From assembly GCA_964016885.1 (NCBI GenBank), contig OZ024740.1, forward strand, positions 311,984,001-312,048,000: 64,000 nt of DNA. Reading direction: 5' to 3'. Position numbers and translations under genes: made by a program. Positions 6,159 to 52,710 of this stretch are shown one piece after another (within the stretch, counting starts at the first letter, position 1; the number at the start of each line of letters is the position of its first letter). Below the pieces are notes generated by a model that ran no database searches, was not told the DNA's origin, and worked only from the letters and a program-made list of their open reading frames with translations. The DNA comes from Eledone cirrhosa. Lineage: Eukaryota.

Positions 6159-6211
6159 ACTGGTGACCCCGTAAAACAAACACACAACCTTCTGATCATC
6201 CACAACAAACG

Positions 6212-7087
6212 ATGTCTCTAGCACACGACGATTCATCAACGGCAGAAATGGCAGTCAGGTCGACATTAAGGATTCCACCATTCTGGCGGCATGATCCAAC
6301 ACTGTGGTTCGCGCACATCGAAGCGCAGTTCGCATCAAACCGGATCGTTAGCGAGGCATCCCATCTCACACATCTCATCGGTTCGATGTCTCCGGAGATT
6401 ATGAATGAGGTTCGAGACCTCATTTTAGCACCACCCGGCTCTGTGTCATATGACACATTTAAAAGAACATTACTTAAGCGGACGTCGGAGTCGCAGCAGA
6501 AGCGCTTGCACCAGCTACTCATATCGGAGGAATTAGGAGATAAAAAGCTGACGCAACTCCTACGGAAAATGAAGCAGCTTCTGGGTGAACATAAACTCCC
6601 GGATTAAATTTTCGAGCAACTCTTCCTCCAGCGTTTACCTTCTGCCACACAAGTGGTACTAGCATCCACCAGGGAGTCCACCACCATAGAAGAACTTGCC
6701 GAGCTGGCAGATAAGATCATGGAGGTACCACATCCGCACTCAACTTTAGCGAATGTGACGCCAGCCGTGCCTTCCACCAATCCTTTCCTTCAGCCCCCCG
6801 GTGCCACAGAGATGCCCGATCTACACCAGTTACTGGCACAGCAAGCAACACAGATACAGGCCTTGATGCAACAAATTCAGGCCTTGTCACTGGGCAACCC
6901 TGCCACACGTCGGTCCAACAGCCGAACTCGCCGATTTGGTGGTCGCTCAAGAAGTCCCAGCGCATCTCGAGATTCACCAGAAATGTGTTGGTACCACCAA
7001 AGATTCGGGAGACGAGCACAAAAGTGCAGCCATCCCTGTTCATTTGTTTCGAAAACAAATCAGGGAAACGACACAGCCAGAAACTGA
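6212..7087 (+). pseudogene. gag: gag of element 1 (one in-frame stop at 6605-6607)
   Basis: PPFWxxDPxLWFxxIEAQF N-terminus; CWYHQRFGRRAQKCSHPC; ORFs at 6212 and 6653 share a frame. Confidence 0.9.
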
Positions 7088-10000
7088 ATGCGACAGACGT
7101 TTCTGGCCCTCATAACCAAAGTCGCCTATTTTTCATACAGGATCGCGTCACAGGCTCGCGTTTCCTGGTCGACACCGGTGCTGAAGTGAGCATCATCCCG
7201 GTTTCCTGCGTTCCTGGAAAAAGGAGAGAGACACCAGCCTGGCTCCAGGCGGTGAATCACTCACATATTCCGACCTATGGAGAACAGTCCCTGACACTAA
7301 ATTTGGGACTACGCCGCACTTTCCAGTGGGTATTTGTTGTTGCTAAGCTGCTGACCCCTATTTTAGGAGCTGATTTTCTTCAGCACTTCTCGCTTCTAGT
7401 GGATCTGAAAAACCAACGTCTCGTTGACAACTCCACTGGTCTCGCTGTGCGCGGCATAGCCGCTAGGACAGCCACAGTCAGTCCAGTCATTTCAAGATCA
7501 ACAACAACAACCCGGCACAACCACATCATCAACAAATACCCAGCCGTAGCTCGACCACTATTCAACGCTTGCCCTGTAAAACATGATGTCACACATCACA
7601 TAAAAACACACGGCCCACCTGTCGTTGCACGACCTAGAAGGTTACCACCAGACCGGCTGAAGTCCGTCAAACAAGAATTTCAGCACATGCTGGATCTCGG
7701 CATCATACGTCCGTCCAGCAGCAACTGGTCCTCACCCATACACTGTGTACCCAAGAAGTCGTCGAACGACTAGCGAATCTGTGGCGACTACCGTGCACTA
7801 AACAACTGCACCGTTCCTGACTCTTATCCAGTGCCTCATCTACAGGACTTCTCTAGCTCGCTGCACGGGGCTCGCATATTTTCGAAGATCGATCTTGTGC
7901 GAGCTTACAATCAGATACCCGTAGAGCCCGCAGATATTCCAAAGACTGCAGTCACAACACCCTTTGGAATGTTCGAATTCCTGCGTATGCCTTTCGGTTT
8001 GCGAAATGCAGCGCAGACATTCCAGCGATTCATCGATACAGTCACCAGGGGTCTACCTTTTGTATACGCATACATTGACGACTTACTGGTGGCCAGCAAC
8101 TCCGATGAAGAACATGAGAAACACCTGGATCTCCTATTCACACGTTTGCGTGAATATGGAATCGTTATCAACCCCAGCAAATGTGAGTTCGGAGTTGCGT
8201 CCCTTATTTTTCTGGGACACATTATTGACAAAGATGGTATTCGCCCACTTAAGGAGAAAGTCAAATCCATCATTGATTTTCCACAACCTATATCTCTCCG
8301 CAAACTGCGAGAATTTCTTGGCCTGATAAACTTCTACAGAAGATTTATACCCAACTGTGCAGAGACAGCCCAACCACTCACAGATTTGCTGCGGCAGCGT
8401 ACAACCAAAAACGCAAACATCAAGCTCAGCGAAAAAGAATGTACCGCTTTCGCTGAGTTGAAGAAAATGTTGTCCGAGGCTACAATGCTGAGTTACCCCA
8501 AACCTGACGCCCCAATGTGTTTATTGACTGATGCATCCGATTTCGGAGTTGGAGGTGTGCTTCAACAACTCTCTGGCGATATTTGGCGACCTGTATCTTT
8601 TTTCTCTAAGCGATTAAAACCCACCGAAACTAAGTACAGCACATTCAGTCGTGAATTATTGGCAGCATACCTTGCTGTCAAGCATTTTCGACACATGCTA
8701 GAAGGTCGTGTGTTCTCTATATACACCGACCACAAACCACTAGTGTACGCGTTCAATGCCAAGCCTGACCGACACTCACCCAGGGAGGTCCGACATCTGG
8801 ACTTCATTTCTCAGTACACCACTGATATTCGGTACATTAAGGGTGCCACCAACTCAGCAGCTGATGCCCTATCGCGCATGGAGCTTAACGCAATCCACAC
8901 CACTGCCACTATCGACCTCCAGAAGATTGCAGCGGATCAACAGAATGACGAGGAACTGCTACAACTCCGGAAATCATCCTTGAAATTGAAGGAATGCCCA
9001 CTGCCCTCTTCTTCGGGTTATATTTGGTGCGACATCTCCACAGGCCACGAGCGCCCATACGTGCCCCGGAAACATTGACGTGACGTTTTCTCGGCACTGC
9101 ATTCTCTGGCACATCCTAGCATCCGCACCACGCAGAAACTGATGGTTGCCAGCTTTGTGTGGCCCAACGTCAACAAGGACACCCGCGAATGGGCTAGGAA
9201 CTGCATCGCGTGCCAGAAGGCGAAAATTCACCGGCACATCAAAGCCCCGATCGGTTCTTTCGCAACACCTGATGCACGGTTCCAACATGTGCATAAAGAC
9301 ATAGTTGGACCTTTGCCTCCTTCTCACAACCACATTCATCTTCTCACCTGTGTCGACCGATTTTCTCGCTGGCCAGAAGCTTTTCCCCTGACGGATACCA
9401 CTGCGGAAACTGTCGCCAAAACGCTAGTGTTTCACTGGGTTTCGCGTTTCGGCACACCCGCGACCATCACTACGGATAGAGGACGTCAGTTCGATTCAAA
9501 CCTATTTACCGAGCTGACTCGTCTCCTCGGGTGCAAACACATCCGTACAACGGCGTAACACCCTGCAGCTAACGGCGTGGTAGAACGCTTACACCGCCAG
9601 CTAAAATCATCTATCAAGGCTTACGAAGACTCCACTAACTGGTTCGAACACCTCCCACTCATTCTTCTTGGTATTCGTTCCACTGTTAAGGAGGGAGTCG
9701 GACATTCTCCGGCTGAAATGGTGTATGGCACCGTACTCACTCTACCCGGACAAATGATTGCTCCTGTTTCGCCACAAGAACTTCCAGACCCTACAAAATA
9801 TGTGCACCGTTTACAGTCATCGATGTCGCATCTGTCTCCTTCAGCCCCTAAACAACAGCACGTTACTTCACACATACCAAAAGACATCGATACATGGACG
9901 CATGTTTTCGTTAGAAATGACGGTATTCCATCGCAACTTCGTCCACCGTATTCCGGGCCCTATAAGGTGATACAGAAACGCCCTAAGTATTTCGTCCTAG

Positions 10001-10245
10001 ACTTGAACGGGAAACGAAATACCGTCTCCATTGATCGTTTGAAGAAAGCGTTCATAGAACAGGAATTGCCACCAGTACCCACCGTTTCTCCAGCAGACTC
10101 ACCAACAACTTTGTCCGACACAAACACGACAAATTATGCACAACCCCGACACACCAAATCCGGAAGAACAGTCCGATGGCCCACGCGATACGTACAAGTT
10201 TATCGGGTAAGTACAAATTATGCATCTGGTCGACATTTTGGCTAA
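7063..10245 (+). pseudogene. pol: pol of element 1 (protease, RT, RNase H, integrase); stops at 7771, 9076, 9556
   Basis: FLVDTGA protease; RMPFGLRNA and YIDD RT; TDASD..RELLA RNase H; H-H-C-C, D..D..E and GPY integrase; four ORF pieces in one frame, -1 relative to gag. Confidence 0.95.
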
Positions 10246-10623
10246 TTTGTACATTTCAACGAATCGGCCAATTTCTGTGGTCATGAACTATTGCTACACA
10301 CAAATCAATTAACTCTGTGCATCACCCACATCAAAAGAACAGACAAAAGAACATTTTTCCGTTTCTATGAAATGAACAAACTTTTAATCAACAAACTTTT
10401 CGTATGAACATTTTCAATTTTATGTAACATCACAGTACATTTTCCTGCATGTAAATTTCTTTTGCTTTGCATGTTTTCTTTCATGTCTCCTGTTTGTAAA
10501 TGACTTTCATCTGTTTTTTTTATTTTTACTGATTTTCTTCAACAACACACCTAGTCATACCTATCTTCATTTCACATGCACCTAGATCGTTCAATCTCAG
10601 CTTTCTCACTGGAAGGGTGGTAC

Positions 10624-11337
10624 TATAACGGCGGCGAAGATTCGAAACTGAATCTGAGCTTTCCCGCCTCTGGGACAAGCCGTGGTAATTTGTTTACGCT
10701 CAGGAGATAACCCCTTGGGAGAGGCTAAACACAGGTCAGAGGTGTTTACACCTGACAGAAAATAGGTCAGAGGATATATCCATCTTTCTGACTTGTTTAC
10801 GCTTGGCAAACTAATCCCTTGGGAGACTAACCAAAGTTCAGAGGATATATCTATCCTTCTAGCTTTAACTCTTATAAATAGAGGGATTGTTTACGCCAAA
10901 AATAGAAAAACAGTGGATACAGACAAGACGAGTCTCATTTACAGGCTCTCGTCACGAAAACCAGTCTACCACTTATTCTCACCTTCCTGGCTGATCGCTG
11001 ACTCCTCCAATACAAATAAGTAAATATACTGATACGCCGCACACACGCAATTCATACTGAGTCCAACATTTGTACACGCACCATTCATTTCTGTTTACAC
11101 ATATTATAATCGTATTCTGTGATATTTAAATTTACGTGGCTCGAAGAGCCACCAAATTATTGTATGAATATTTTGTGTCAATTATTTTATCATTCAATAT
11201 TCAAATTGAATATTGTTGTAATAAAATAAACTTTGTAACAACACTCCTGGTATTTTTATTTACACTGAATCCACCATACCAACAGTTACATCCATCCATC
11301 CACTTGTCGTTACAACCACACATAATATTCCGTTACA
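10624..11337 (+). repeat. 3' LTR of element 1 (714 bp)
   Basis: Direct repeat of 5444-6158, preceded by PPT, followed by TSD AAGA. Confidence 0.95.
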
Positions 11338-12555: not shown

Positions 12556-13109
12556 GTAAGAATATTTTCACACATCATTAAACATATTTCCTGGCTTCTT
12601 TCAACCATCTTTTGCTGGGGTGAGGTGGCACACGCTAGTGGCAGGAAGGAGGGGTGTAGTGATGGTGAGAATATATTAGCAGTGATAGTGGAGTGGGCAT
12701 AGGTGGAGTGCATTTGTGTGAAGAGAGTAGCTACTAGAGTGCAAAAGGATTTTAGTGGAGAGACAGCATATATCTGTATCACGTGATAATTTCTCACTCC
12801 CAAGAACTATTCACTTGTAATCAGGTCAAGAAACAGTCCATTAAATTGAGGGGTCTCTTGATAAGCCTATAGCCTCACAGCAATGGTGCACTTTTCTGCA
12901 TGATTGCTGGAAAGCAGTAGGCAAAACTGCAGTTGGGACTTTGAAGAAAAAAACAATATATATATGTATATGAAAGCATATACCATATGTTTATATACAA
13001 TAAACATATGAGAGCCTTGCTATCAAAGAAAAATAATTTTTTTGTTACAAAAAAATTAATTTTCTCTCTTTTACACCGTGAACATGTCACATATATCTTA
13101 GTAGCAGTC

Positions 13110-13166
13110 GAGAATGTCAGATAACTCTTTCAAGATTTGTTAATCTCTCATCAGTGATATCAACTC
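13110..13166 (-). ncRNA. Hammerhead ribozyme motif, type I, partly degenerate
   Basis: Minus strand: gag-tt-gatatca CTGATGA gagat-taacaa-atctt GAAA gagtta TC tgacatt-ctc; stems I and II pair, stem III is disrupted. Confidence 0.6.
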
Positions 13167-13209
13167 AACTAGTACTGAGATTGAAATAGACTAGAGTCTA
13201 CACTATAGA

Positions 13210-14082
13210 TCTTGCTTGCAGTCTGACCTGGACACAATGCAACAATGGATCTCAGACTGGCAACTCAAGCTAGCTGTGGACAAGTGCACCACCATGCATT
13301 TTGGGAGTAAAAACCCAGCGTCCACATACTCCCTCCACAGCACTAATATCAAGAAGTCTTCTTGTGAACGTGACCTGGGCATTACGGTCAGCAGCGATTT
13401 ACGTTGGACGAAGCACATCTCTAAAATTGTTAAGAGGGCCGAGGGTGTCTTAGCATCACTCAGCAAGACCTTTGTCAGCCGCTCTCCAGATATCTATTTA
13501 AGGCTGTACATGGCTATGGTGCGACCACACTTAGAATTTGCATCACCAGTCTGGAACTCCTATCCTGCTCAGAACATTGACCGCCTGGAAACTGTTCAGA
13601 GACGTGCAACCAAGCGAATACCCTCCATCAGGCATCTACCATACTCTGAGCGCCTTGCTTCCCTGGGCATGGATACATTGAAGCTCTGACGCCTGGCAAC
13701 TGACTTGGTAAACACCCACAAAATTGTTAACCATCTTGCCAACAACAACCCTGAGTACCTTTTTGATTTCCATGTGTCTAATACACGTGGACATGCCCAC
13801 AAAGTAAGAAAACAGCACAGTTCCCATGACTTTCGAAAACATTTTTTCACGCTCAGAGTTGCTGAAGCATGGAACAAACTACCTGCATGAGTTGTTAGCT
13901 GTCGAGACACTGCATCCTTTAAGGCCTCAATGCTTCCCGAGATCCGCCAACACTACAGCTAATACATACACACATGTACTTCCCTGACATTTGTGTATTA
14001 TTCTATGTACTATACATACACCTTTGACGAGTTGTAGTGCACCTGAGCACTTTACACAATAATTTCATTATTATTATTATTA
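13210..14082 (+). mobile_element. 5'-truncated CR1-clade LINE
   Basis: RT C-terminus ERDLGI...VRPHLEFASPVW...VQRRATK...TRGH...AWNKLP; 3' UTR ending in (ATT)n; TSD-like TATAGA at 13204 and 14083. Confidence 0.9.
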
Positions 14083-14208
14083 TATAGACTTTACCTAATG
14101 AACATTTTGCTCGAGATGCTTATTCATATATAACTAATAGAAAACATTGGCTGGAAATACTGAGCTAGGTTCTCATATATTTATTGTATATATACTTTCA
14201 TATACACC

Positions 14209-14665
14209 TGTAGCAAGAGTTGCCTCCCTTGTCATGACAATCTCATCACCGCTCTCTAGACAGGAAGTAGCTGGAGTTGCATCCCTTTGGGATTGACAGA
14301 CTCCCTGTTGGTCACTTCCGGTCAACTCTTATAAAAGGAGCAGGTTACCACGATATCTCCCTCTTGCCTCCTGATTTCTGAAGTGGTAACACCTGCGACC
14401 CTAGCTTGTGATGATTCCTTCTTGATAATCCTTCGCTACCAAGAACAATGCAACTTGCAGCCTGAGAACCTTAAGATGTTGATACCAGCCAGAAAAGATC
14501 TCTTCTTTTCTCTACCAACTTCAGCCTCGAGTTATGACCATCGGGTAACAAATCCTTAATATTTAATGCCTTTGACTTCCATGAAGTAAAAACTTTATTA
14601 TAACACACACACCGGTATTTACTGTCTTTTTTATGTTATATGTACACCGATACTAATCTCCTAAA
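14209..14665 (+). repeat. 5' LTR of element 2
   Basis: Direct repeat of 18980-19435; termini TGTAG...CTAAA. Confidence 0.94.
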
Positions 14666-15160
14666 GTGGTGACCCCCGACGTGATTTTTAAAAAAAAAAA
14701 AAAAAAAAAAAGAATGGGAAATGGTATACGGTGTATATAATATAATATAAAAAAAAAAAGAGAGACAGAAGAAAAAGAGAAAAATATAACAATTTAATAC
14801 AAAACGAACACCTACAATTATTGACACACAGACAAACAACAATTGTATAAATGTTTTTGCCTTTTTTTTCTCTCCTTTTCTGCCCTTCTCTTCTCTGGCT
14901 AAAAACTTTTGAGGATGACAAGATGGAGTCTCTCTTCTCCATCAATAGTGTTTTTGGCGCGAAATAGTCCGCCATGTTGGATTTTTTTTTTAGGTTCCTT
15001 GCCCTTACCTTAGTATAACAGCATTCACTTAATCGCTTGTTTGCATATTGTCCCGGATGCATTATTTTTCCGGTCCAGTGGTCTGACGGAAAAATTTTGT
15101 TTTCCTTTTCTGTTACGTTAGAGACATTTTTCCAAACGGTAGATTGCCTGCGGTATACCA

Positions 15161-15955
15161 ATGGCTTCCCACTCTGTTCTGCCAACGTACACGGGTGACG
15201 TGAGGCTATGGTTCTCACAGTTAGAAGCATTCTTCAGGGCGAACAGAGTTGACGAGGAACTACAACATTCTGTGGTCCTTAGTGCAATTCCGTCGGCAAT
15301 TCTCCCAGCGGTAAAGGACCTGGTGTTAGAGGCAACCACAGACTCGTCGTACACGTCTCTGAAGGCTGAAATACTCAGCCGGACAGAACGGTCTTCAGAA
15401 AAAAAATTTAGGGCTCTGGTCCATCTGGAGCATATAGGGGATGGCACCCCATCAAACCTCCTTAGGCGAATGAAGGACCTAACGGAGGGGTCTGCAGCAG
15501 AAACTGTCCTGCTGAAGCAGTTGTTCTTCTCGCGCCTGCCGACCAACGTACAGGCAATTTTGGCCCCCATGAGGGATACAAGCACGGTGGATCAGCTTGC
15601 CGCATCTGCAGACAAAGTTTTCGAGGTGACGAATGCCGGAGGCAGCGACTTCCTTGCCGCTGTTCACCACCCAGCTCGGGCCACACACAGCCATGCGATC
15701 TACGCCGCAGCGCCAACAGACAGCTCGACCATTATAGCGATGCAAAGGTCCATTCAGGAGCTCACCATAGAGCTCCACAAGATGAAGGCCTTGTGTGGTG
15801 GCTGTTCGTGCCCCCGCAGTCGCGGGAGATCGCAAAGTTTTAGACGGCGTTCTAAGTCACCAGCTTCATCTTTATGCTGGTACCACGAGTGATTTGCTGA
15901 GAACGCAAATCACTGCGTGCAACCTTGCTCCTTTCATAAGGTGGGAAACGCATAA
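15161..15955 (+). pseudogene. gag: gag of element 2 (premature TGA at 15890-15892 inside the CHCC motif)
   Basis: LPTYTGDVRLWFSQLEAFF; CWYHE*FAENANHCVQPC. Confidence 0.88.
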
Positions 15956-18363
15956 GAGGTCCGCTGATGGGGACAGCTGACCTCAACATAAAGTCACCAA
16001 ACCGCTATTTCTTCATTAAGGACCTAATGTCCGGAAGAGGTTTCCTCGTGGATACAGGAGCCTCCTGTAGTATTTGGCCGGTCCATTGCCTGAAAGATAC
16101 CCCCATAGAGTCATCTGTTACGCTGCAGGCAGTTAACCACTCGTCTATAAAGACGTACGGGCAAATCTCGCTCCCTCTTAAATTCCTAAATCTTCGAAGG
16201 GATTTTAAGTGGATTTTTACGGTTACCGATTTGCCATATCCCATCTTAGGAGCGGATTTCCTCCACAACTTCTCCTTAACTGTGGACGTCCGTGGCCAAC
16301 ACCTGGTGGATAACATCACCGGCTTTTCAATTCATGGCCAGGAAGCCAATGCTCCAATAGTCAGCCCCATGTTCTTTATCGCTGCCGCTGGAGACGCCTA
16401 CCATGCGTTACTGGGTTTTTTCCCGGAGCTCACGGATGGAAATTTTCGAGTCACTGGCCCAACACACTCAACCGAACATTTCATTTCCACCACCGGTGCT
16501 CCAGTGTTTTCGCGTCCACGTCGCTTACCGACGGAAAAATTAAAGGCAGCACGGTCCGAGTTCGACCATATGCTGCAGCTGGGCATTATTCGCCCATCTA
16601 CGAGTCCTTGGGCTTCACCGTTACACATGGTGCCCAAGACTTCCAGCGACTGGAGACCCACTGGGGATTATAGGAGGTTAAATGCCATGACCGTCTCGGA
16701 TAGGTATCCCATTCCCCATCTCCACGATTTTGCATCTTCACTGCAGGGGTGTAAGATTTTTTCTAAGTTAGATTTAGTGCGAGCCTACCACCAAATTCCG
16801 GTCAGGAACGAGAATATTCTGAAAACGGCGATTACAACCCCTTTCGGATCATTCGAATTTTTTACCATGCCTTTCGGACTCGGGAACACCGCTAGCACTT
16901 TTCAGCGGTTCATAGACGAGGTCACACGTGGTCTGGACTTCGTTTATGCTTACATAGACGATATTCTCGTCGCTAGTTCTTCTCCGGAAGAGCATATGCG
17001 CCACATGCTTCTCTTATTTCGGCGACTTCAGGATTACCGCGTTCGCGTGAATCCTGCAAAGTGTGTTTTCGGTTCCACTTCCCTACATTTTTTAGGCCAC
17101 CTCATCGACGCCGAAGGTATTAGGCCGCTCCCTCAGCGAGTTCAAGCCATACAGGAGTTACCTCCGCCTACTACACTTCACCAGTTGCGTCACTTCTTAG
17201 GCCTAATCAATTTCTATAGGCGTTTCATTCCTCATTGTGCTAATTGGCTATCTTCCCTTACTGACATTTTAAAAAATCGTCGTAAGAAGAAGGAAGACAT
17301 TTCCTTGACACAAGGACAGCTTCAGGACTTCCAGTCTGCCAAGACAGCACTCGCTAGTTCTTCTTTGCTAGCCCACCCAGTACCAGGCCAAGCTTTCGCT
17401 TTGTGTTGATGCATCTGATACCGCTGTGGGAGCAGTTTTACAGCAGTCTTACGCTGAAAACCAACAACCTTTGGCATTTTTCCCGAGGAAGTTGAAACCA
17501 GCAGAAACGTGTTATAGCACATTTGGCCTGAAGCCATCCCTTTACAAGACATGACTGCTGAAACTGTAGCACGTGCCCTGGTATCAGGGTGGATTACCAC
17601 CTTTGGGGTACCAACTACACTCACCACAGACCGTGGTAGACAATTCGAGTCCCATCTCTTCTCTGAGCTCACAAAAATAATTGGAGCTCAACGGATTCGG
17701 ACCACGGCCTATCATCCTGCTTCAAATGGAATGGTGGAACGATTCCACCGCCAATTAAAGGCCGCTCTTCGCGCCTATCCAGACTCTCAACATTGGAGCG
17801 AGTACCTTCCTATTGTGTTATTAGGAATTCGGTCATCAATAAAGGAGGACCTTGGGACCTCCCCGGCCGAATTAATTTACGGTGCTCCTCTAGCATTGCC
17901 TGGGCAAATGCTTGCCCCTGTTGATCTTGCTTTCCAAGATCCGCTTTCCTACGTATCCCGTCTGCGTTCTTATTTTCAGGACCTGCCGCCGATGGATACG
18001 AGGAAGCAAACTGTAAAACCTGCGGTCCCGAGGGATATTGCCTCGTGGACTCATGTGTTCGTAAGGAACGATGCTGTGAGACCACCCCTCACACAACCAT
18101 ACTCTGGACCCTACCGTGTGTTAGCACGCACTGACAAACATTTCACTGTAGATGTTAAGGGGTCCAGAGAGACAATTTCAGTGGATAGACTGAAAAGGGC
18201 ACACAATGACGCTCATACACCCAAGCCACAAATACCCCAATCTTTCTCTCTTGTGCATACACCTGCTCCTTCTGCCCCACCTTCACCTACATACAAGACT
18301 ACGACCCGTTCCGGTCGGAGAGTCCACTGGCCCAAAAAGTTCTGCCAAACTATTTTTATGTGA
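15943..18363 (+). pseudogene. pol: pol of element 2 (PR, RT, partial RNase H, partial integrase; frameshift ~17390; deletion ~17525)
   Basis: FLVDTGA, YIDD, VDASD; the sequence jumps from RNase H YSTFG to integrase WPEAIPL; GPY motif. Confidence 0.92.
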
Positions 18364-18979
18364 ACTGGCCATTGGAGCCTTATATTTTTTTTTTTTCTTG
18401 CTGCTATTGTTATTTATTGATTTATTGTATTACAATGTACCTCTCATTACCATTTCACTGGATGTATATATATGTTTTTCGTTTCCTTTACAACGAACAT
18501 TTTAAGCTATATTCTTCTATTTGCCGGTTTATAAATTTACCACGTAAATTTGCCGTGGAAAACCGCGCATTTATTAAGAATGCTTATTTCTCTGGTCGCT
18601 GGCCTCTTGACCCTTCCAGGTCAACGCATTCACAACATCAACAACAACAACACAGCTTCATCAACAACTAAAACCAGCAGAAAAAGCCAGACAATTTATT
18701 TCTGCAGCACTCTGCCTGTGAGAAATTCCCTTCGGAAGTTGGAAATTTCATGTTATACCACAGACCAGAAACCACCTGCATTCATTCTCTGGAACACATT
18801 CTTTACTGCTGTCATGTGATTGCATACATGTGAACTGTATTTTAGATATTTGAACTTTTGACCTCTTCTCGTACTTTTATTACTTTGTACTATAATTTTC
18901 ATGCCTCTTACATGCTCGCCCTCTTACTCCATGCATGCTTCTTTCGATTTTTATGTTTTAAAAATCTGGCGGGAGGTAA

Positions 18980-19435
18980 TGTAGCAAGAGTTGCCTCCCT
19001 TGTCATGACAATCTCATCACCGCTCTCTAGACAGGAAGTAGCTGGAGTTGCTTCCCTTTGGGATTGACAGACTCCCTGTTGGTCACTTCCGGTCAACTCT
19101 TATAAAAGGAGCAGGTTACCACGATATCTCCCTCTTGCCTCCTGATTTCTGAAGTGGTAACACCTGCGACCCTAGCTTGTGATGATTCCTTCTTGATAAT
19201 CCTTCGCTACCAAGAACAATGCAACTTGCAGCCTGAGAACCTTAAGATGTTGCTACCAGCCAGAAAAGATCTCTTCTTTTCTCTACCAACTTCAGCCTCG
19301 AGTTATGACCATCGGGTAACAAATCCTTAATATTTAATGCCTTTGACTTCCATGAAGTAAAAACTTTATTATAACACACACACCGGTATTTACTGTCTTT
19401 TTATGTTATATGTACACCGATACTAATCTCCTAAA
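18980..19435 (+). repeat. 3' LTR of element 2
   Basis: Direct repeat of 14209-14665, followed by CACC. Confidence 0.94.
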
Positions 19436-24170: not shown

Positions 24171-24430
24171 GTAACTTACAAATTCTTCATAGAAATATAC
24201 AAAAAAATGTTGATGTAAAAAAATATTTCACACTTTCATTCTCTCTCTCTCTCTCAATATATATACAATGTGAAGGTAAATAAGGTTTTGTTTGTGTATA
24301 TCAGTAATCTTCAAAACAATCTCAATTTCTTAATTCCTTTTTCCTCCCTACCCACTCTTCCCTACTCTTAATTTCTACCCTCTCCTTCTCTGTCCTTCTC
24401 TTTATACCTTCTCTACCCTTTCAACCATAC

Positions 24431-27400
24431 AGGGGGAACCTCATGGTGGTCCATAAGTGTGCTAGAAATAGCAGCTAAATAATGGGAACCTCATGGTGGC
24501 CCATAGGTGTGCTAGAAATAGAGCTAAATTAAGGGAACCTCATATTGGTCCATAGATGTACTAGAAATAGCAGCTAAATAGGCAGAACCATAGATATGCT
24601 AGAAATAGCAGTTTCATCAGCTAAACAGGGGAACTGCATGGTGGTGCATAGGTGTGCTAGAAATAGCAGCTAAATTAAGAGAACCTCATGTTGGTCCATA
24701 GGAGTGCTAGGAATAGCAGCTAAATAGGGGGAAACCTCATGGCGGTCTATAGGTGTGCAAGAAATAGCAGCTAAATAGGGGGAACCTCATGTTGGTCCAT
24801 AGATGTGTTAGAAATAGCAACTGAATAGGAGGAACATCATGGTGGTCCATAGGTGTGCTAGAAATAGCAGCTAAATAGGGAAACTCATGATGGTTCATAG
24901 GTGTGCTATAAAAAACAGCTAAATAAGGGGAATCCCATGGTGGTCCATAGGTGTGCTAGAAATAGCAGCTAAATAAGGGAATCTGATGGTGGTCCATAAG
25001 TGTGCTTGAAATACCATCTAAATAGGGGGAAACTCGTGGTGGTGCATAGGTGTGCTAGAAATAGTAGCTAAATAGAGGGACCCTCATTGTGATCCATAGG
25101 TGTGCTAAAAATAGGAGATACATCAGCTTAACAGGAGGAACCACATGGTGGTCAGTAAGTGTGCTAGAAATAGCAGCTACATCAGCTAAACAGGGGGAAC
25201 CTCATATTGGTCCATAGGCGTGCTAGAAATAGCAGCTAAATAGAGGGAAGCTCATGATGGTTCGCAGGTGTGCTAGAAATAGCAGCTACATCAGCCAAAC
25301 AGAGGGAACCTCATGGTGGTCCATAGGCCTATTAGGAAAAGTAGCTATTAGGGGGTACTTCATGTCGTACTATAGGTGTGCTAGAAATAGCAGCTAAATA
25401 GGGTGAACACCATGGTGGTTCATAGGTGTGCTAGAAATATCAGCTATATCAGCTAAATAGGGGGAACCTCATGTTGGTCCATAGATGTGCTAGAAATAGC
25501 AGCTAAATAGGGGGAACCTCAAGCTGGTCCATGGTGTGCTAGAAATAGCAGCTAAATAGGGATAAATCATGATGGTCCATATATGTGTTAGAAATAGCAG
25601 CTAAATAGGGGAACCTCGTGGTTGTCCATATGTGTGCTAGAAATAGCAGCTACATCAGCTAAACAGGGAGAACCTCATGGTGGTCCATAGTCATGCTAGA
25701 AATAGCAGCGAAATTAAGAGAACCTCAAGATGATGCATAGGTGTGCTACAAATAGCAGCTAAATAGGGGAGACCTCATGGTGGTTCATAAGTGTGCTAGA
25801 AAAAACAGCTGAATATGGAGAATCACATGGTGGTCCATAGGTGTGCTGGAAATAGTAGCAAAATAGGAAAACCTCATAGTTGTCCATAAGTGTGCTAGAA
25901 ATCGCAACTAAATAGGGGGAAACTCATAGTGGTGCATAGGTGTTCTAGAAATAGAAGCTAAATAGTTGGGGATCTCATGGTGGTTCATAGGTGTGCTAGA
26001 AATAGAAGCTAAATAGGTGTAACCTCATGGTTGTCAATAGGTGTTTTAGAAAAGCAGCTAAATTGAGGGAACCTCATGGTGTTCCATAGAAATGCTAGTG
26101 ATAGCAGCTAAATAGTGTTAGAGTTGGGAACATCCTGTTGGTCCATATGTGTGCTAGAAATAGCAGCTAAATTGGGGGAACGTCATGGTATTCTATAGGT
26201 GTGCTAGAAATAGTAGCTAAATAGGGGGAACCTCATGGTGGTCCATAGGTGTGCTAGAAAAAGCATCTGAATCAGCTAAACAAGGAGAACCACATGGTGG
26301 TCCATAAATGTGCTAGAAATAGCAACCATATAGGTGAACTTCATAATTGTCCATCGTCTGCTTGAAATAGCAGCTACATCAGCTAAACAGGGGGAACCAC
26401 ATGGTGCTCCATAGGTATGCCAGAAATAGCAGCTAAATAAGGGGAACCTCATAGTGGTCCATAGGCGTGCTCGAAATATTAGCTAAATACGGGAAACCTC
26501 ATTGTGGTTCATAGGTGTGCTAGAAATAGCAGCTATATAGGGGAAATCTTTTGGCAGTCCATGGGTGTTCTAGAAACGACAGCTAAATAAGGTAAACCAC
26601 ATGGTGGTCCATAGATGTGCTAGAAATAGCAGCTAAATAAGAGGAACCTCATGGTTATCCATTAATGTGCTAGAAATTGCAGCAAAATAGAGGGAACCTC
26701 ATGTTGTTCTGCAGGTGTGATAGAAATAATTGCTAAATATGGGAACCTCATAGTGGTCCATAGGTGTGTTACGAATAGCAGCTAAAAAGGGGAAACCTCA
26801 TTATGGTCCATAGGTATGCTAGAAATAACAGCTTCATCAGCTAAACTGGGGTAACCTCATGGTGGTCCAAAAATATGCTATAAATAGTAGCTAAATAGAT
26901 GGAATATTATGGTGGTTCATAAGTGTGCTAGAAATAGCAACTAAATAAAGGGAACATCATGGTAGTCCATAGGTGTGCTAGAAATAGCAGCTAAATAGAT
27001 GAACCTCATAGTGATCCATGGTCAGCTAGAAATAGCAGCTATATCAGCTAAACAGAGAGAACCGCATTGTGGTCCATAGGTTTGCTAGAAATATCAGATA
27101 AGTAAGGGTAAACTCATAGTGGTCCGTAGGTGTGCTAGAAATAGCAGCTAAATAAGGAGAACCTCATTGTGGTCCATATATGTGCTAGAAAAAACAGCTG
27201 CATCAGCTATACAGAAAGAACCACATGGTAGTCCGTAGGCGTTCAAGAAATAGCAGCTAAATAAGAGGAACCTCTTGGTGGTCCATAGGTGTGCTAGAAA
27301 TAGCAGCTAAATAGAGGAAACTCAGGCTGGTCCATAGGTGTTCTAGTAATAGCAGCTATTTCTAGCACACATATGGCCAAGTATGAGGTTCCCCTATTTA

Positions 27401-34231: not shown

Positions 34232-34340
34232 ATATAATAATAATGAAATTATTGTGTACAGTGCTCAGGTGCACTACAACTCATCAAAGGTGCATGTATA
34301 GTACATAGAATAATGTACAAATGTCAGGAAAATGAACAGT
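34232..34340 (-). mobile_element. CR1 3' UTR fragment
   Basis: Same 3' end (gagttgtagtgcacctgagcac...aataatttcattatt) as the other CR1 copies. Confidence 0.75.
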
Positions 34341-34518
34341 GTATGAGTCATGATATAATAATAATGATAATAATAATTGTTTCTACTTTTGGCACAAGGC
34401 CAGCAATCACCCAGTAGATCACTGGTACTTCATTTCATCGAGCCCATAAGGACGAAAGGCAAAGTTAACCTCGGCGGGATTCGAACTCAGAATGGCAAGG
34501 GCCGCAACTCTATACGTC

Positions 34519-36858
34519 ACAGTGCCCAGGTGCACCACAACTCATCAAAAAGTGCATGTACAGTACATAGGGCAATGCACAAACATCAGGAAAATGAACA
34601 GTGCACGAGTCATGATACACACATGTGCATGTGTATGGAAGGGGTACATCAGGTGTAGTTTTGGCGTATTTCGGGAAGCATGAGTGTCTTAAAGGATGCA
34701 GTGTCTCGGCAGCTAACAACTGACGCAGGCAGTTTGTTCCATGCTTCAGCAACTCTGAGCGTGAAAAAATGTCTACGAAAGTCATGGGAGCTGTGCTGTT
34801 TTCTGATTTTGTAGGCATGTCCACGTGTGTTAGACACATGGAGATCAAAAAGGTGCTCAGGGTTGCAATTGGCGAGATGGTTAATAACTTTGTGGGTATT
34901 CACCAAGTCCATTGCCAGACGTCGGAGCTTCAATGAATCCATGCCCAGGGAAGCAAGGCATTCAGAGTATGGTAGGTGTCTGATGGAGGGTATGCGCTTG
35001 GTTGCACGTCTCTGAACAGTTTCCAGGCGGTCAATGTTCTGAGCAAGATAGGGGTTCCAGACTGATGATGCGAATTCCAAGTGTGGTCGTACCATAGCTG
35101 TATACAGTTTTAAATAGATGGTTGGAGAGCGGCTAACAAAGGTCTTGCTGAGTGATGCCAAGACACCCTCGGCCTTCTTGACAATCTTAGAGACATGCTT
35201 TGTCCAACGCAAATCGCTGCTGACAGTAATGCCCAGGTCACGTTCACAAGAGGACTTCTTGATATCAGTGTTGTGGAGGGAGTATGTGGACGCTGGATTT
35301 TTCCTCCCAAAATGCATGGTGGTACACTTGTCCACAGCCAGCTTCAGTTGCCAGTCTGTGATCCATTGCTGCATTGTGTCCAGGTCTGACTGCAGGAAAG
35401 AGTTGTCGATTTCAGGATCAGTCCTTTTGATTTCAAGGTACAGCTTGATGTCATCTGCATATTTCAGTACCGTGGCATTCTGTAAGTTGGCATCTATGTC
35501 ATTAATATATGCCACAAACAAAAGGGGACCAAGAACAGATCCCTGTGGTACACCAGATGACATCTCATATGGTGAAGAATGCTGTCCTAGAACCGTGACT
35601 ACTTCTTTTCGGCTGAGAATGAAGGATTTCAACCAGTCGAAAAGATCATCCCTCACACCCATTGCAGAGAGTTTTGCCATAAGTCTTTTGTGTGGCACAG
35701 AATTAAAAGCCTTAGCAAAGTCAAGGTAAACAACATCCACCCATGAGCCGCTGTCAGTGATCCGGGTGATGTCTTCAAGGAACTCGATAAGCTGATCACA
35801 GCAGCTGGAGTTAGGGATAAATCCAAACTGTGAGGGCCGGATGAGGCTGTGAGAGCTCTAGAAGTTCCAAAGTGTTTCTCTGACACAGGATTCCATCAGT
35901 TTGACCATACAGCTAGTAAGACTGACTGGACGATAGTTGACAGGTGACATGCGGTTGCTCTTTTTGAACAGAGGAATGACACTGGCAGTTTTCCACTGCT
36001 CCGGAGTAGCACCATTGTTGAGACAGTATTGAAAGAAGAAAGAAAGCTGGCGCAAAAGGAAATACCCACCACGTTTGAGAAGCAGGTATGTAACACCATC
36101 AAGACCAGGGGAGGCATAGTTGCGCTTATTCTTAAGGTGACGTCGCAACATTGCAGGTGTAAATTCCATAGTTGTTATGGAATTTGATGTTAGAGATGGT
36201 GGAGATGGTATATTCTGGTTTTCAACAGTAAAAATATTTGCATAGCACTCAGCAATGAGTTCTGCGCATTCTTTGGGATCGTCAGTGATCTGGCTTGTGT
36301 GGGGATTGCGAAGAGGACCAACTGGAGAGTGAGGTCTCTGCTTTGAATGAACATATTTCCAGAACACCTTACTGTCAAGATTGGTTGCTATGCACTGTTC
36401 AAATTCAAGCACTGCCTTCTTTGTCACTTGCTTGAGATGGTTAGAAGATTTATTCCGCTTTTTTCTGTTGTCATCTGATTTATGCAGTTTATATTCCCGT
36501 TCAGCGTTCCGACGTTCTTTCCTGGCAAGTCGGACCGCGGAAGTTTCCCAAATTGCACTTTTGGGGTGGTTTTTTATCTGCTTACGTGGCACCGATGCTG
36601 CATATGCTATCCATATTGAGTCCAGGATGCTCTGGAGTATAGTGTTCACATCTCCAGAGTTATACATCTCATGCCAGTTTGGGCGCTGTAGCTCAGTGCA
36701 GTACAAGTTCCAATCTGCTCTCTTCCAATCAGAGCAAGCAGATTGGAGGTGGTTCTGGTTTTTGTTGCTGCCCTCAAGTGCCAGATTGGCAATGATCATA
36801 GCATGATCAGAGTCGCCTAGAGGTTCATCAGTAGTACAACTGATAACCACTTCAGTCA
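34519..36858 (-). mobile_element. CR1-clade LINE ORF2, 5'-truncated (end of APE endonuclease + RT), one premature stop
   Basis: PLGDSDHAMI, NYRPVSLTS, YLDFAKAF, GVPQGSVLGP, YADD; ORFs 36859-35858 and 35740-34649 are one frame split by TAG at 35860-35858. Confidence 0.93.
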
Positions 36859-37496: not shown

Positions 37497-38405
37497 GCCT
37501 GGACACAATGTAACAATGGATCACAGTGCAACAATGGATCACAATGCAACAATGGATCACAGACTGGCAACTCAAGCTAGCTATGCATTTTAGGAGTAAA
37601 AACCCAGCGTCCACATACTCCCTCCACAACACTGATATCAAGAAGTCCTCTTGTGAATGTAACCTGGGCATTACGGTTAGCAACGATTTGCGTTGGACAA
37701 AGCATGTCTCTAAAATTGTCAAGAAGGCCGAGGGTGTCTTAGCATCACTCAACAAGATCTTTGTCAGCCGCTCTCCAGCTATCTATTTAAAGCTGTACAT
37801 AGCTATGGTGCGGCCACACTTAGAATTTGCATCACCAGTCTGGAACCCCTATCTTGCTCAGAACATTGACCGCCTGGAAACTGCTCAGAGACGTGCAACC
37901 AAGCGAATACACTCCATCAGGCATCTACCATACTCTGAATGCCTTGCTTCCCTGGGCATGGATACATTGAAGCTCCGACGCCTGGCAACTGACTTGGTAA
38001 ACACCCACACAATTGTTAACCATCTTGCCAACAACAACCCTGAGTACCTTTTTGATTTCCATGTGTCTAACACACGTGGGCATGCCAACAAAGTCAGAAA
38101 ACAGCACAGCTCCCATGACTTTCGGAAACATTTTTTCACGCTCAGGGTTGCTGAAGCATGGAACAAACTACCTGCATCAGTTATTAGTTGTCGAGACACT
38201 GCATCCTTTAAAACCTCCATGCTTCCCGAGATTCGCCAACACTTCACCTAATATTCCCCTTCATACACATACACACATGTATATCATGACTCATACACTA
38301 TTCACTTCCCTGACATTTGTATATTATTCTATGTACTATACATGCACCTTTGACGAGTTGTAGTGCACCTGAGCACTTTACACAATAATTTCATTATTAT
38401 TATTA
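37497..38405 (+). mobile_element. 5'-truncated CR1-clade LINE
   Basis: 241-aa ORF of RT C-terminus, 3' UTR and (ATT)n tail; 18-bp unit triplicated near the 5' end. Confidence 0.9.
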
Positions 38406-45620: not shown

Positions 45621-46078
45621 CTGGAAGAGAATAGTATATGAGAGTATATTATGTAACAGCTGATGCCTGTGTAGCAACAAGGTTTTACTCTTCATATGAA
45701 GCTTGCATAAAAAATATGATGATGTATGATAGTAAAATGGCCACTGAGTGTGGAACCTGCTGAGCTGGTATGGACATTTGAGGGGTGTTATATACTGTAG
45801 GTGGACAGGGAAGATCTAGGAAGAAGTTATGAAGTTAGATCTCAGGATATTGGGCCACTGTTACAGTGGAGTTGACAAAATACCAAGACAGTAAGCGGTA
45901 TACCAGAGGTTCTCAAACTTTTAGCCCTGCCCCTGGCCATGTAATACCCTCAGCTCCCCCCACCCCTATTTCCAGAGAGATCTACCTACATGCAAATTGT
46001 AAATAATATATAATAAATAAAATTGTTAATCTATATACAAATAATATAATATATATTATGTATAAATAAATATTGTAT

Positions 46079-46450
46079 AATAGAATTAGAATTTAGCTTC
46101 GAACATAGCTGTATACAAATATGTATTTGAATTTCATATTTCTAAAGAAATATGGTATGTTTATAAATAAACATTTAGAAAGCCATAGCTATGAATAACA
46201 CACTGGCAACTAACGCCACCAGGCAGTGCCCGGCAGAAGCAAGAGGACAATCGTCTATGCATTTCGAACTCGACTATTTCTCATCAGGACGATCTCTGCC
46301 GTTCTTGCAACTGCTGGACTTTGAAAACAGGCGAAAATATATAGTTTTTTCATGTGTAAATGAGGTGATTAATCTCATTTGCATATGAAGCTGTATAAGT
46401 TGGTTCAATAGAATTAGAATTTAGCTTCGAACATAGCTGTATACAAATAT
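46079..46450 (-). mobile_element. Putative retrozyme / Penelope-derived hammerhead repeat (328-bp unit + 44-bp terminal redundancy)
   Basis: Perfect 44-bp direct repeat at 46079-46122 and 46407-46450; internal hammerhead; octamer ATGCAAAT (minus strand) at 46377-46384. Confidence 0.65.
46231..46301 (-). ncRNA. Hammerhead ribozyme, type I with minimal palindromic stem III
   Basis: Minus strand: cggcaga-g-atcgtc CTGATGA gaa-atagtcgag-ttc GAAA tgca TA gacgat-(12 nt)-tctgccg; core intact; predicted cleavage after AUA, between 46256 and 46255. Confidence 0.85.
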
Positions 46451-48188: not shown

Positions 48189-49643
48189 TCTATATATTAA
48201 TTTCAACAATGTCAGTATTCCGTGTGTCATAATTCTCGATTATCATTGGTTCATAGGTTTCAAATAACTCCGCCCACCTCAACGACGCCAAACTTAAATT
48301 AATATGCATAATGCCAATGAGGAAGTGAGAGGGGAGAGTAAGAAACAGAGAGGCAAAGTGAACGCTGTAACTATTACCATGTGTGTGTGTGTATGTACGT
48401 GCGCATATGTTTATGTGTGTGTGCGTGCGTGCAGCGTTCCACAGAAAGTAAAAGCAATTCGACTTTATCAAACAGTGAAGTACAGCGGCAACGGCGAGCA
48501 ACCAGGAATGAAGAAAAACAGGCCGCACAGCACCATCGGAACGCCGAACTTCAGAGGCCAAGACGTGCCGCCATGAATGAAGAGGAGCTGGCTGAACAGT
48601 GCCAACGAAACACTGAAGCCAAGCAGCGACGGCATGCTGCAATGGTTGAAGACGAACTGGCTGAGCATCATCTTTTATATTAATTATCTATATCTATATC
48701 TACATATAATATAAAAGATTGGAACTTCCATCATCCTTTTGAGAAACGTGGAACAGCCACGTCTATAATATAATGAAATTATTGTGTAAAGTGCTCAGGT
48801 GCACTACAACTCGTCAAAGGTGCATGTATAGTACATAGAATAATACACAAATGTCAGGGAAGTGAATAGTGTATGAGTCATGATATACATGTGTGTATGT
48901 GTATGGAGGGGGAACATTAGGTGTAGTGTTGGCGAATCTCGGGAAGCATGGAGGCCATAAAGGATGCAGAGTCTCGACAGCCAACAACTGATGCAGGTAG
49001 TTTGTTCCATGCTTCAGCAACCCTGAGCGTGAAAAAATGTTTCCGAAAGTCATGGGAACTGAGCTGTTTTCTGACTTTGTGGGCATGTCCACGTGTGTTA
49101 GACACATGGAAATCAAAAAGGTACTCAGGGTTGTTGTTAGCAAGATGGTTAATAATTTTGTGGGTGTTTACCAAGTCAGTTGCCAGACGTCGGAACTTCA
49201 ATGTATCCATGCCCAGGGAAGCAAGGCATTCAGAGTATGGTAGATGCCTGATGGGAGGTATATTGAACAGTTTCCAGGAGGTCAATGTTCTGAGCAAGAT
49301 AGGGGTTCCAGACTGGTGATGCAAATTCTAAGTGTGGCCGCACTATAGCCATGTACAGCCTTAAATAGATAGCTGGAGAGTGGCTGACTATGCAATGATA
49401 CACGTTTTACAGTCAGGCAGAAGATGAATCTACTAGAGATCACTATTCTAGGTGGGAGCACCTAGAATTGTTCATATACTATGCATAAACGGTACAACAA
49501 AGAATCTGGTATATCTGGAAGATTTTTTTTACTGTTTTTTGTATCACAGACACCACGGACAAACATCCAATACAGTCATTTTCTCTTTTACCTGTCTTCT
49601 CTTATCATCTGTTTACCCGGGCGAAGCTGGGTATGTCAGCTAG
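48189..49643 (+). mobile_element. Non-autonomous, deleted Helitron
   Basis: A|TC 5' end; 3' hairpin ACCCGG-GCGAAG-CTGGGT then CTAG|T. Helicase remnants: KIGTSIILLRNVEQPRLCNDTR (split by the CR1), SRVG, GTTKNLVY. Charged R/E-rich repeat ORF at ~48470-48670. Confidence 0.85.
48767..49387 (-). mobile_element. 5'-truncated CR1 nested in Helitron
   Basis: CR1 RT C-terminus and 3' UTR; flanked by CTAT at 48763-48766 and 49388-49391. Confidence 0.88.
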
Positions 49644-50192: not shown

Positions 50193-51353
50193 CTAAGAAT
50201 AAAGACACAAATCTCATTACAATAATCCCTTAATTAATAGCCCCATATATATTCCTAGGTAATGAAATGCCAAACTAAGCAACATTCTACAAGTTTACTA
50301 AAATATAGAATAGAAACAGGATCCTTAAAAATAACCTCACATAACAACATTGTGTTAGATTTTAAACAATTTTATCACTCTAAAAGTTATACAGCTCATT
50401 GAACTATGGTGTGAAATAAGTGTTGGCAACAAGGCAAATTGCAACTCCCAAGTGAACCACTGAAGTGTTCTCTGTAAGTCTCAGACTGTTACAAATTTTC
50501 ATATGTAAGATATAATATACATGTAGGCCATGGGCAAAACTAAAAAAAATCATAAGTGAACAATTACAAAACGTAGTTGCTGATCTCTGGTCTAAAGTTA
50601 TGATGTAATTCATGTCTAAATTAGTAACAGGCACAAATGAAAATTAGTGGCATGAATGAAAGATTTGTAACAACTGCCAGATATAATAGCATGCATGCAA
50701 TTATATCTGGCAGTTTTGTACAAGCATAAAAGTAATCTTTAGAATACATCCAAGCTTTTAGTTCTGATATTTTCATTTCCACAAGAACACAGTTAAGGTT
50801 ATCATGATAAAACAATACTACTATAAATCAATTTGTCTGCTATTAAAAATCAAGTTAGATGAGGTCAGAGTTTTAGCACCAAACAACATTTACTATAAAA
50901 TCTAGCACATTCAGTTAGGGTTAGCAAAATATTATAAGGCATATTATTTCCCTAAATCTATTTTTAAACCATCACTGCTTTTTTCACACTTCTTACACCT
51001 AGAGATTAAAATATAAGAAAACACAACCATATGCTTAATTTTTTTTATTTTTTGAAGTTTCAATTACTTTTAATTAGAAGAATGGATTAGTGGATAAAAC
51101 AAAGTACTATTCATGTACTGGATCAACATAATATTCCATTAAAACATTGTAAATATGAATAGAATAAGTTTTCTTAATAAAAATTAAAAAAATCATAAAC
51201 AAATCACTCCCTCTTCCCCCTCCAATCTGTGACCCTAGAGCCGTTGCCCTTCATTTACTGTTTTTAAATATCTATAGTATGTTTAATTATATATCTTTTT
51301 ACAAACCTGGAAGCAAATAAAAACTAAATAATAAAAAACAAAACTGAGTTTAC

Positions 51354-51430
51354 GTTTCTAATGCATCATCATATTCATTTACAGCTTTCTTTAATGCTTC
51401 TTCATCACCATTCTGTTTTGACAGTTGTAC
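51354..51430 (-). CDS. TTC30: TTC30 coding exon (VQLSKQNGDEEALKKAVNEYDDALE)
   Basis: tcaAG / GTaaac; KKAVNEYD. Confidence 0.92.
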
Positions 51431-51571
51431 CTTGAATTATAGAAAATACAGTAATAACAAGGAGACACCAACACAGACTCAAGTTATCACTATATGCAAA
51501 TGAGCATCTCCAACCAATGTTTCATTACAAAAAAGCATATAAGCTGTAGCTTATTCCTGTTGCAATACTAA

Positions 51572-51628
51572 GTGAGTAAATGTCACTGATGACGGACATA
51601 AATCCAGAAACACGTCTGACATTCTCAC
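51572..51628 (+). ncRNA. Hammerhead ribozyme motif, type I
   Basis: gtgag-ta-aatgtca CTGATGA c-gga-cataaa-tcc-a GAAA cacg TC tgacatt-ctcac; 7-bp perfect stem I with a 5-bp extension; GUC triplet; C-A mismatch at the base of stem II. Confidence 0.75.
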
Positions 51629-51786
51629 ATGGCTACTGAAATAGCTGCGACATGATCAAAGTTTAAAATATTCATAAGACTCTTGTATGTTTATTATAAG
51701 TAAATGTATTGTATATATGCCTTCATATACACCTCAATTATGAACCATAGTATATTAATGCTACTGCTCATATATAGATAATGAAT

Positions 51787-52710
51787 ATAATGAAATTATT
51801 GTGTACAGTGCTCAGGTGCACTACAACTCGTCAAAGGTGCATGTATAGTACATAGAATAATATACAAATGTCAGGAAAGTGAATAGTGTATGAGTCATGA
51901 TATACATGTGTGTGTGTGTATGGAGGGGGAACATTAAATGTAGTGTTGGCGAATCTCAGAAAGCATGGAGGTTTTAAAGGATGCAGTGTCTCGACAGCTA
52001 ACAACTGATGCAGGTAGTTTGTTCCATGCTTCAGCAACTCTGAGCGTGAAAAAATGTTTCCGAAATCATGGGAGCTGTGCTGTTTTCTGACTTTGTGGGC
52101 ATGCCCACGTGTGTTAGACACATGGAGATCAAAAAGGTAATAAGGGTTGTTGTTGGCAAGATGGTTAATAATTTTGTGGGTGTTTTACCAAGTCAGTTGC
52201 CAGACGTCGGAGCTTCAATGTATCCATTCCCAGGGAAGCAAGGCGTTCAGAGTATGGTAGATGCCTGATGGAGGGTATTCGCTTGGTTGCACATCTCTGA
52301 ACAGTTTCCAGGCGGTCAATGTTCTGAGCAAGATAGGGGTTCCAGACTGGTGATGCAAATTCTAAGTGTGGCCACACCATAGCTATAACAGCTTTAAATA
52401 GCTAGCTGGAGAGCGGGTGACAAAGGTCTTGCTGAGTGATGCTAAGACACCCTTGGCCTTCTTGACAATTTTAGAGACTTGCTTCATCCAACGCAAATCG
52501 CTGCTGACCGTAATGCCCAGGTCACGTTCACAAGAAGACTTCTTGATAATAGTGTTGTTGAGGGAGTATGTGGACACTGGATTTTTACTCCCAAAATGCA
52601 TGGTGGTGCACTTGTCCATAGCTAGGTTGAGTTGCCAGTCTGTGATCCATTGTTGCATTGTGTCCAGGTCAGATTGCAGGCAAGATCTAAAGTATTCAGG
52701 ATCGGTCCTG
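51787..52710 (-). mobile_element. 5'-truncated CR1-clade LINE with frameshifts
   Basis: Same RT C-terminus and 3' UTR as the other copies. Confidence 0.9.

Follow-up and report, generated by a model that had tools for sequence, protein, structure and literature searches.

Dispersed hammerhead repeats of the octopus Eledone cirrhosa carry a putative internal snRNA-type promoter

How a short non-coding repeat with a predicted self-cleaving ribozyme is transcribed is the question raised by a locus at 51 kb in the stretch of Eledone cirrhosa DNA analyzed here (the window, 64,000 nt of contig OZ024740.1). The initial annotation placed a hammerhead with a 7-bp perfect stem I, a CUGAUGA/GAAA core and a GUC site at 51572-51628 (+), and all of these were found there. 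The ribozyme is of type I with an extended stem I: AATGTCA (51579-51585) pairs perfectly with TGACATT (51617-51623), CTGATGA (51586-51592) and GAAA (51607-51610) make up the core, cleavage is predicted after C51616 of the GUC, and GTGAG/CTCAC (51572-51576/51624-51628) prolongs the stem. It lies in a 5'-truncated repeat copy of approximately 0.95 unit (51479-51768, +, ends approximate), which belongs to lineage A with units of ~306-309 nt.

Upstream of the ribozyme is the octamer-type 13-mer ATATGCAAATGAG (51492-51504, +; octamer at 51494-51501, +), the same as the element upstream of the host RNase MRP gene and one U6 gene. The 13-mer occurs twice in the whole window, here and at 46374-46386 (-), and the chance of finding it within a 30-position band is ~1e-6. 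As had been claimed, it is present in both the 51-kb copy and a second repeat at 46 kb (octamers at 51494-51501 and 46377-46384), and the distance from octamer end to core, put at about 85-90 nt, is 85 and 90 nt. The octamer is followed by a PSE-like block (51507-51524, +, core C at 51511) and by a TATA-like box, AGCATATAAG (51534-51543, +), 23 nt from the PSE core C, which is the spacing of host Pol II snRNA genes. Transcription is predicted to start at a pyrimidine-A at 51564 or 51567 (+), positions taken from host spacing only. GTTGCAA, proposed as a further common element, proved to be a coincidence: among 30 copies of the 51-kb family the 51-kb copy is the sole carrier, and in the 46-kb family the motif is present in 22 of 30 copies in another register.

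The 51-kb copy itself is probably an old relic, inactive or poorly active, as judged from its sequence, because it is a lone monomer without a downstream unit, its stem III is short and non-palindromic and its PSE is weakened. The PSE core reads CAA, vs. CAG in its family, and the match is weak (p=0.16) compared with the family consensus (p=0.019). Stem III is 6 nt long, 2 nt shorter than the 8 nt of most relatives, and its two-strand pairing was calculated to be -2.9 vs. ~-11 kcal/mol in longer forms; the outer helix of the family carries mutations in this copy, and in folding the copy forms stem I (z -2.2) and not the hammerhead core. The structure predictions indicate that the copy is probably impaired as a self-cleaver, not efficient. 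Contigs of three runs from one sample span this stretch, and the short stem III is no assembly error, because one of them matches 51200-51813 without differences. In Rfam the copy gave no match at the gathering threshold and no hammerhead match at E<=10; our own covariance model, built partly from this copy, scores its hammerhead at 62 bits.

The window holds two further hammerheads. The 46-kb copy (46075-46450, -, ends approximate) is of lineage B, extends over more than one unit with terminal redundancy and has its octamer at 46377-46384 and its hammerhead at 46244-46299 (-). The third hammerhead (13108-13166, -) is of lineage A2; a LINE fragment of ~870 nt has inserted at the TATA and parts this hammerhead from its decayed octamer/PSE at ~14081-14132. 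One LINE family left five fragments in the window (51770-52700, 34240-35860, 37583-38400, 13208-14080 and 48770-49390); the tail of one adjoins the 3' end of the 51-kb copy and another splits the third hammerhead element. The window also contains a ~3 kb tandem array of ~50/59-nt units (24400-27400) and two LTR retrotransposon copies with RT frames and terminal repeats that are 99% identical (5500-11000 and 14200-19300).

Genome-wide there are at least 1,305 candidates for the 51-kb family and at least 2,791 for the 46-kb family in the 3.0 Gb host genome, and the ~16 lineage copies found in an 800 kb sample suggest, as a rough estimate, tens of thousands of copies in total. Alignments of the best 30 matches of each family gave unit lengths of ~309 nt (51-kb family) and ~338 nt (46-kb family). 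In both sets the downstream end of the unit matches sequence upstream of the octamer, and the copies can therefore be regarded as windows on a circular or tandem unit. Real tandems exist at the family level, with units of 306, 326, 384 and 542-584 nt, plus 310 nt in family H. All units (306-584 nt) are non-coding and without LTR, and the one GIY-YIG frame lying alongside (L042) is part of a different element. A type I hammerhead, short tandem units, no coding capacity and no LTR together give the repeats the sequence characteristics of non-LTR retrozymes. At least two subfamilies had been proposed; clustering of 106 octamer-plus-core elements gave about ten, in six lineages. Over the core region the 51-kb and 46-kb families are 40% alike, a figure that for most other lineage pairs lies at 37-50%. 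For a set of 29 hammerheads chosen beforehand for their stem pairing, 91% of cells were paired and 11 of the 12 pairs showed two-sided change, with a covariation score of 0.818 vs. 0.281 for shuffled and <=0.134 for slid alignments. Eight rebuilt circular units all folded better than their shuffles (z -3.7 to -11.8). Two loci of another family (L236:3558-3687 and L095:1308-1370) have CTGATGA/GAAA words and a long hairpin.

The proposal that octamer and spacing are kept across the family was borne out. The pattern TATGCAAATGA-N78-102-CTGATGA matched 772 times genome-wide, vs. 0 for the reversed pattern. The 12-mer around the octamer is preserved in lineages merely 37-50% alike over the core, lineages that have common ancestry and hence are not independent tests of conservation. 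We also sampled hammerheads without regard to the octamer, in 800 kb taken mostly from the five largest contigs, using a covariance model trained on the same families, including three of the loci concerned; outside the window 8 matches at E<0.01 were retained and 5 weaker ones dropped. At least 9/12 of the 12-mer was found upstream of 13 of 20 hammerhead matches (8 of 13 loci), against a background of 2.6%, and the five loci lacking it comprise two 5'-truncated copies, one copy with an internal deletion and two members of other families. Among copies found by a hammerhead-only pattern the octamer was retained in five of seven. In several loci it is doubled or tripled in short tandem upstream of the promoter (L112, L197 and L172 of lineage D; L109, L116, L193 and L213 of lineage A2/A3).

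In inserted copies, with CpG sites included, conservation of the octamer exceeds that of other sites only modestly (mismatch 8.3% vs. 15.4% in lineage A, p=2e-4; 4.3% vs. 6.6% in lineage B, p=0.11), a result that would fit selection on master copies. The same modest difference would suit the view that the motifs are an inherited relic, or a recognition site for RNA or protein, and that the repeats are transcribed by read-through from flanking genes; the available text of a 2020 review indeed describes metazoan retrozymes as seemingly promoter-less and assumes read-through transcription (PMC7761336). Against this, three motifs persist in host-gene order and spacing despite divergence to ~40% identity, and in family H the host distal element independently occurs at the distance seen in host genes. 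We therefore regard the relic explanation as improbable, and it is very likely, as far as sequence can tell, that master copies have a functional snRNA-type promoter.

To which polymerase such a promoter would belong was approached through the host genes. The host set comprised 29 promoters, from 9 Pol III genes and 20 Pol II snRNA promoters (U1, U2, U4, U5, U11, U12); 13 dispersed U6 matches and most U6atac matches (retrocopy-like, without promoters) were excluded, as were, from a U6 array, 7 copies whose promoter is interrupted by a SINE. In this array (contig C19; L067, L068, L070-L073) the SINE sits at the TATA box of some units and parts the octamer from the gene. A 12-mer, TATG(C/G)(A/T)AAT(G/T)AG, is present at -77 to -80 in seven of the nine Pol III genes (three U6 genes from three lineages, U6atac, RNase MRP and two tRNA-Sec genes), and host and element 12-mers occur in the same two variants, GAG and TAG. 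It was found in none of the 20 Pol II snRNA promoters (best 9/12 anywhere in 310 nt), nor in the 7SK and RNase P promoters. The initial annotation had taken the octamer for the distal element, a role we rejected: in the host it is proximal and confined to Pol III genes, and the distal element is TTACCTCCCTTG at about -260 (-257 to -288 in many genes of both polymerase classes). In host Pol II genes the C of the core, (A)TCAGT, falls at -54 to -57 and a TATA box lies near -30; every host snRNA gene examined, those of Pol II among them, had a TATA-like box at about this position. Host Pol III genes terminate in T5-T9, and a 3'-box consensus was read off the host genes. RNase P and a 7SK candidate (L216:1430-1500, L306:1440-1500) have no octamer and combine a core of the Pol II kind, ATCAGT, with Pol III spacing, so the core alone cannot type the polymerase.

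The restriction of the 12-mer to Pol III promoters among the host genes (7 of 9 Pol III, 0 of 20 Pol II) would agree with a U6-type (type 3) Pol III promoter, in which the 12-mer is, or serves, the Pol III proximal element. A predicted PSE of the Schistosoma japonicum U6 gene, given as a prediction in the accessible part of the source, starts GTGCGAATGAG at -71 (PMC5460494), and lineages A1 and B2 and family H are free of T5 runs. The notion that the octamer is the Pol III PSE itself is weakened by 7SK and RNase P, which are without octamer and have their own separate core.

PSE sequence and placement can set the choice of polymerase in insects (PMC1761439) and, going by the title of one paper, in Xenopus. 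The initial annotation had suggested looking for a PSE by comparison with host U1/U6-type upstream regions, and a PSE-like core at Pol II spacing was indeed found. When the ten subfamilies were scored with a matrix built from 13 host Pol II promoters, every one peaked at the same distance from the octamer's T, an offset of 15; eight of these peaks had p<0.065 (B1 p=0.12; G p=0.61, i.e. background). Element scores (-9.9 to 9.9) are lower than those of real Pol II promoters (7.8-19.9), and host Pol III genes gave p 0.10-0.60 with this matrix at the same offset. In the spacing comparison, from which U5d, U5e and U11b (near-duplicates), SRP, and MRP, which has no CCT core, were excluded and in which the CCT core of host Pol III genes is our own assignment, PSE core and TATA are 22-26 nt apart in Pol II genes (n=17) and 29-31 nt in Pol III genes (n=8), a clean separation. 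The elements have 22-25 nt in nine of ten subfamilies (p=0.004 against Pol III), A3 having lost its TATA, and single copies agree (61 of 69 within 22-26, 1 of 69 within 29-31); the Pol III spacing was found in 0 of 10 subfamilies. The octamer-to-TATA distance, which is independent of the core assignment, is 40-43 in elements vs. 45-48 in host genes, the latter summed by hand. In nine of ten subfamilies a pyrimidine-A stands at the distance from the core at which host Pol II genes start (53-57 nt), a weak sign when taken alone; it lies 47-59 nt ahead of the cleavage site. A point on the other side is that the extended hairpin begins 5-15 nt upstream of the predicted start. The CCT block that follows the octamer in host Pol III genes is at background in the elements (a weak matrix, from 5 genes).

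T5-T9 runs are present in six of eight rebuilt units and at two of four real tandem loci, with a T7 in a near-identical tetramer; the 51-kb family consensus has no run of T4 or more and in this respect would also suit Pol III. In the many units that do contain T5-T9 runs, Pol III would presumably terminate before it had copied the promoter. Owing to the spacing and T-run results, the U6-type promoter was demoted from its place as first reading, and we now consider it unlikely.

Taken together, our results suggest that the promoter is a chimera, with the octamer of Pol III genes on the PSE/TATA geometry of Pol II genes, a combination that none of the host genes examined has; on balance, intact tandems are likely read by Pol II. 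The same chimeric arrangement might also serve both polymerases, Pol II giving read-through multimers for circles and Pol III short linear RNAs that end at T-runs, and in lineages A2, A3, C and G there are T-runs after the hammerhead and before the promoter of the following unit. As neither position nor presence of the T-runs is conserved, and there is a single TATA position, at Pol II spacing, we find dual use hard to credit. The internal snRNA-type module ahead of the hammerhead that had been proposed is common to at least six lineages, and the proposed analogy to newt satellite 2 is supported.

The upstream activator appears to differ between lineages. Lineages A-G have the octamer, and the host distal element was seen in family H (-256) and weakly in lineage B (-262 to -275). 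A distal element throughout the lineages was rejected, as among eight rebuilt units only B1 (p=0.01) and C2 (p=0.04, in the wrong place) had one and six lacked it. Family H (L162:3290-3900; L314-L333, e.g. G000:C1:427449000-427452600, in head-to-head tandem arrays) is very young, with 310-nt units that are 94-100% identical in arrays of up to 6 units. The octamer was not found in it (7/12 at best). Its best PSE position is 76 nt ahead of the core, the same as in lineage A, with a TATA 24 nt beyond (read from the unit), while over the whole unit the PSE match is not significant (p=0.59). The host distal element is matched almost perfectly by the 3' strand of the family H stem I (score 19.3; 0 of 500 shuffles), which lies at -256 from the predicted start of the next unit; in a lineage-B dimer a weaker match was found at -262. 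Possibly, then, there are two routes to an snRNA-type Pol II promoter, the octamer on a Pol II core or a stem I strand that supplies the following unit with its distal element, in which case the full promoter would exist in tandems only. Animal retrozymes would then be promoter-bearing parasites of the snRNA machinery; we put this forward tentatively, as something short of probable. If true, it would explain constitutive high expression and give one design for newts and molluscs.

How such units would spread can be outlined as follows. SNAPc would bind the PSE-like core, with a POU-type factor on the octamer as a short-range activator, an arrangement borrowed from the U6/MRP/tRNA-Sec genes. 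Transcription would begin ~50 nt ahead of the cut site and read into the next unit, and the hammerheads would cut mostly as dimers via the palindromic stem III. The monomer between two cuts would hold the whole promoter and be ligated into a circle, which a Penelope-like RT/endonuclease would copy into (TA)n sites. Copy ends were examined in 60 copies, the best matches to a query covering promoter and hammerhead. The 3' ends cluster in TA-rich DNA (unit position 214-282 in 28 of 30; 262-313 in 29 of 30 for the 46-kb family) and the 5' ends are scattered; no copy ends at the cleavage site (0 of 60), 34 of 60 extend over one unit or more, and copies longer than one unit run across the cleavage site. 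Inverted partner segments, which the part of the literature available to us lists as a Penelope-like trait (PMC8557442), were seen at 15 of 30 lineage-B loci. From these sequence features, mobilization of circles by Penelope-like elements is likely.

The repeats share type I hammerheads, inverted partner segments and (TA)n ends with Penelope-like elements and could be solo pseudo-LTRs of an autonomous element of that kind, whose promoter the module would be; a 2026 preprint, in its accessible text, ties vertebrate retrozymes to pLTRs. Pure tandem arrays of units without ORF speak against this, and in the two autonomous families examined no Penelope-like partner sharing sequence with the units was found. 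The first, a very active RT/GIY-YIG element of 775 aa (L268-L286), has many identical copies, a long CA-rich 3' region and a (TA)n end, and none of its 19 flanks held a canonical hammerhead or octamer. Family I, a longer element with a GIY-YIG-like frame (motif by eye, no Pfam match), has a canonical hammerhead and (TA)n at its terminus, and the promoter module was not found in it. From these tandem arrays and the two families examined, a pseudo-LTR origin seems very unlikely, and with circles as the mobilized form either the 775-aa element or family I could be the helper.

The promoter of newt satellite 2 (Coats, Zhang and Epstein 1994) is said to have an octamer and a PSE, and that of the Schistosoma SM-alpha repeats is reportedly of the A/B-box type. 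Both systems resemble ours. In newt satellite 2, too, an snRNA-type promoter lies inside a hammerhead repeat, and it is reported to be a Pol II promoter (PMC2220036, PMC6765202), a likeness drawn from descriptions and not from sequences. In contrast, the octopus repeats are in an invertebrate host, have a TATA box (as do host Pol II snRNA genes), carry the octamer at the position the host uses in Pol III genes only and are dispersed mobile copies of ~10 subfamilies. SM-alpha is likewise lophotrochozoan, with tandem units in which a promoter precedes the hammerhead, but the excerpted account gives a Pol III promoter there (PMC6765202), as opposed to the upstream octamer-PSE-TATA type here. With host U6/U6atac/MRP/tRNA-Sec genes the elements have the octamer in common, and with U1/U2/U4/U5/U11/U12 genes the PSE core, TATA spacing and start register, although most element lineages are without the host distal element.

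The closest relatives by structure are the metazoan non-LTR retrozymes of coral, mussel and axolotl, which in the accessible text have 300-580 nt non-coding tandem or circularly permuted units, type I hammerheads, thousands of copies and Penelope-like insertion traits (PMC7229834). Circular RNA is demonstrated in that text, whereas the octopus elements are known from DNA sequence alone, and retrozyme circles are described, in the part available, as abundant in all tissues tested of coral, mussel and axolotl. The available portion of a recent preprint on metazoan retrozymes mentions neither promoter, octamer nor snRNA (bioRxiv 10.64898/2026.07.22.740005); here a three-part host-type promoter is conserved. 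In the literature searched, which covered few subscription papers, we found no description of a promoter in invertebrate retrozymes, none of cephalopod retrozymes, and nothing that joins hammerhead, octamer, PSE and satellite. A host-type snRNA promoter across ~10 subfamilies would be a precise and testable answer to how retrozymes are transcribed, and the octopus repeats would carry the newt satellite 2 case over to an invertebrate.

A further observation concerns retrocopies of host snRNAs. In one case (L133:1329-1620) the 5' end of a U6atac retrocopy is joined to a lineage-D hammerhead element in inverted orientation, and other U6/U6atac retrocopies come after (TA)n runs, a placement hinting at template switching by a Penelope-like RT.
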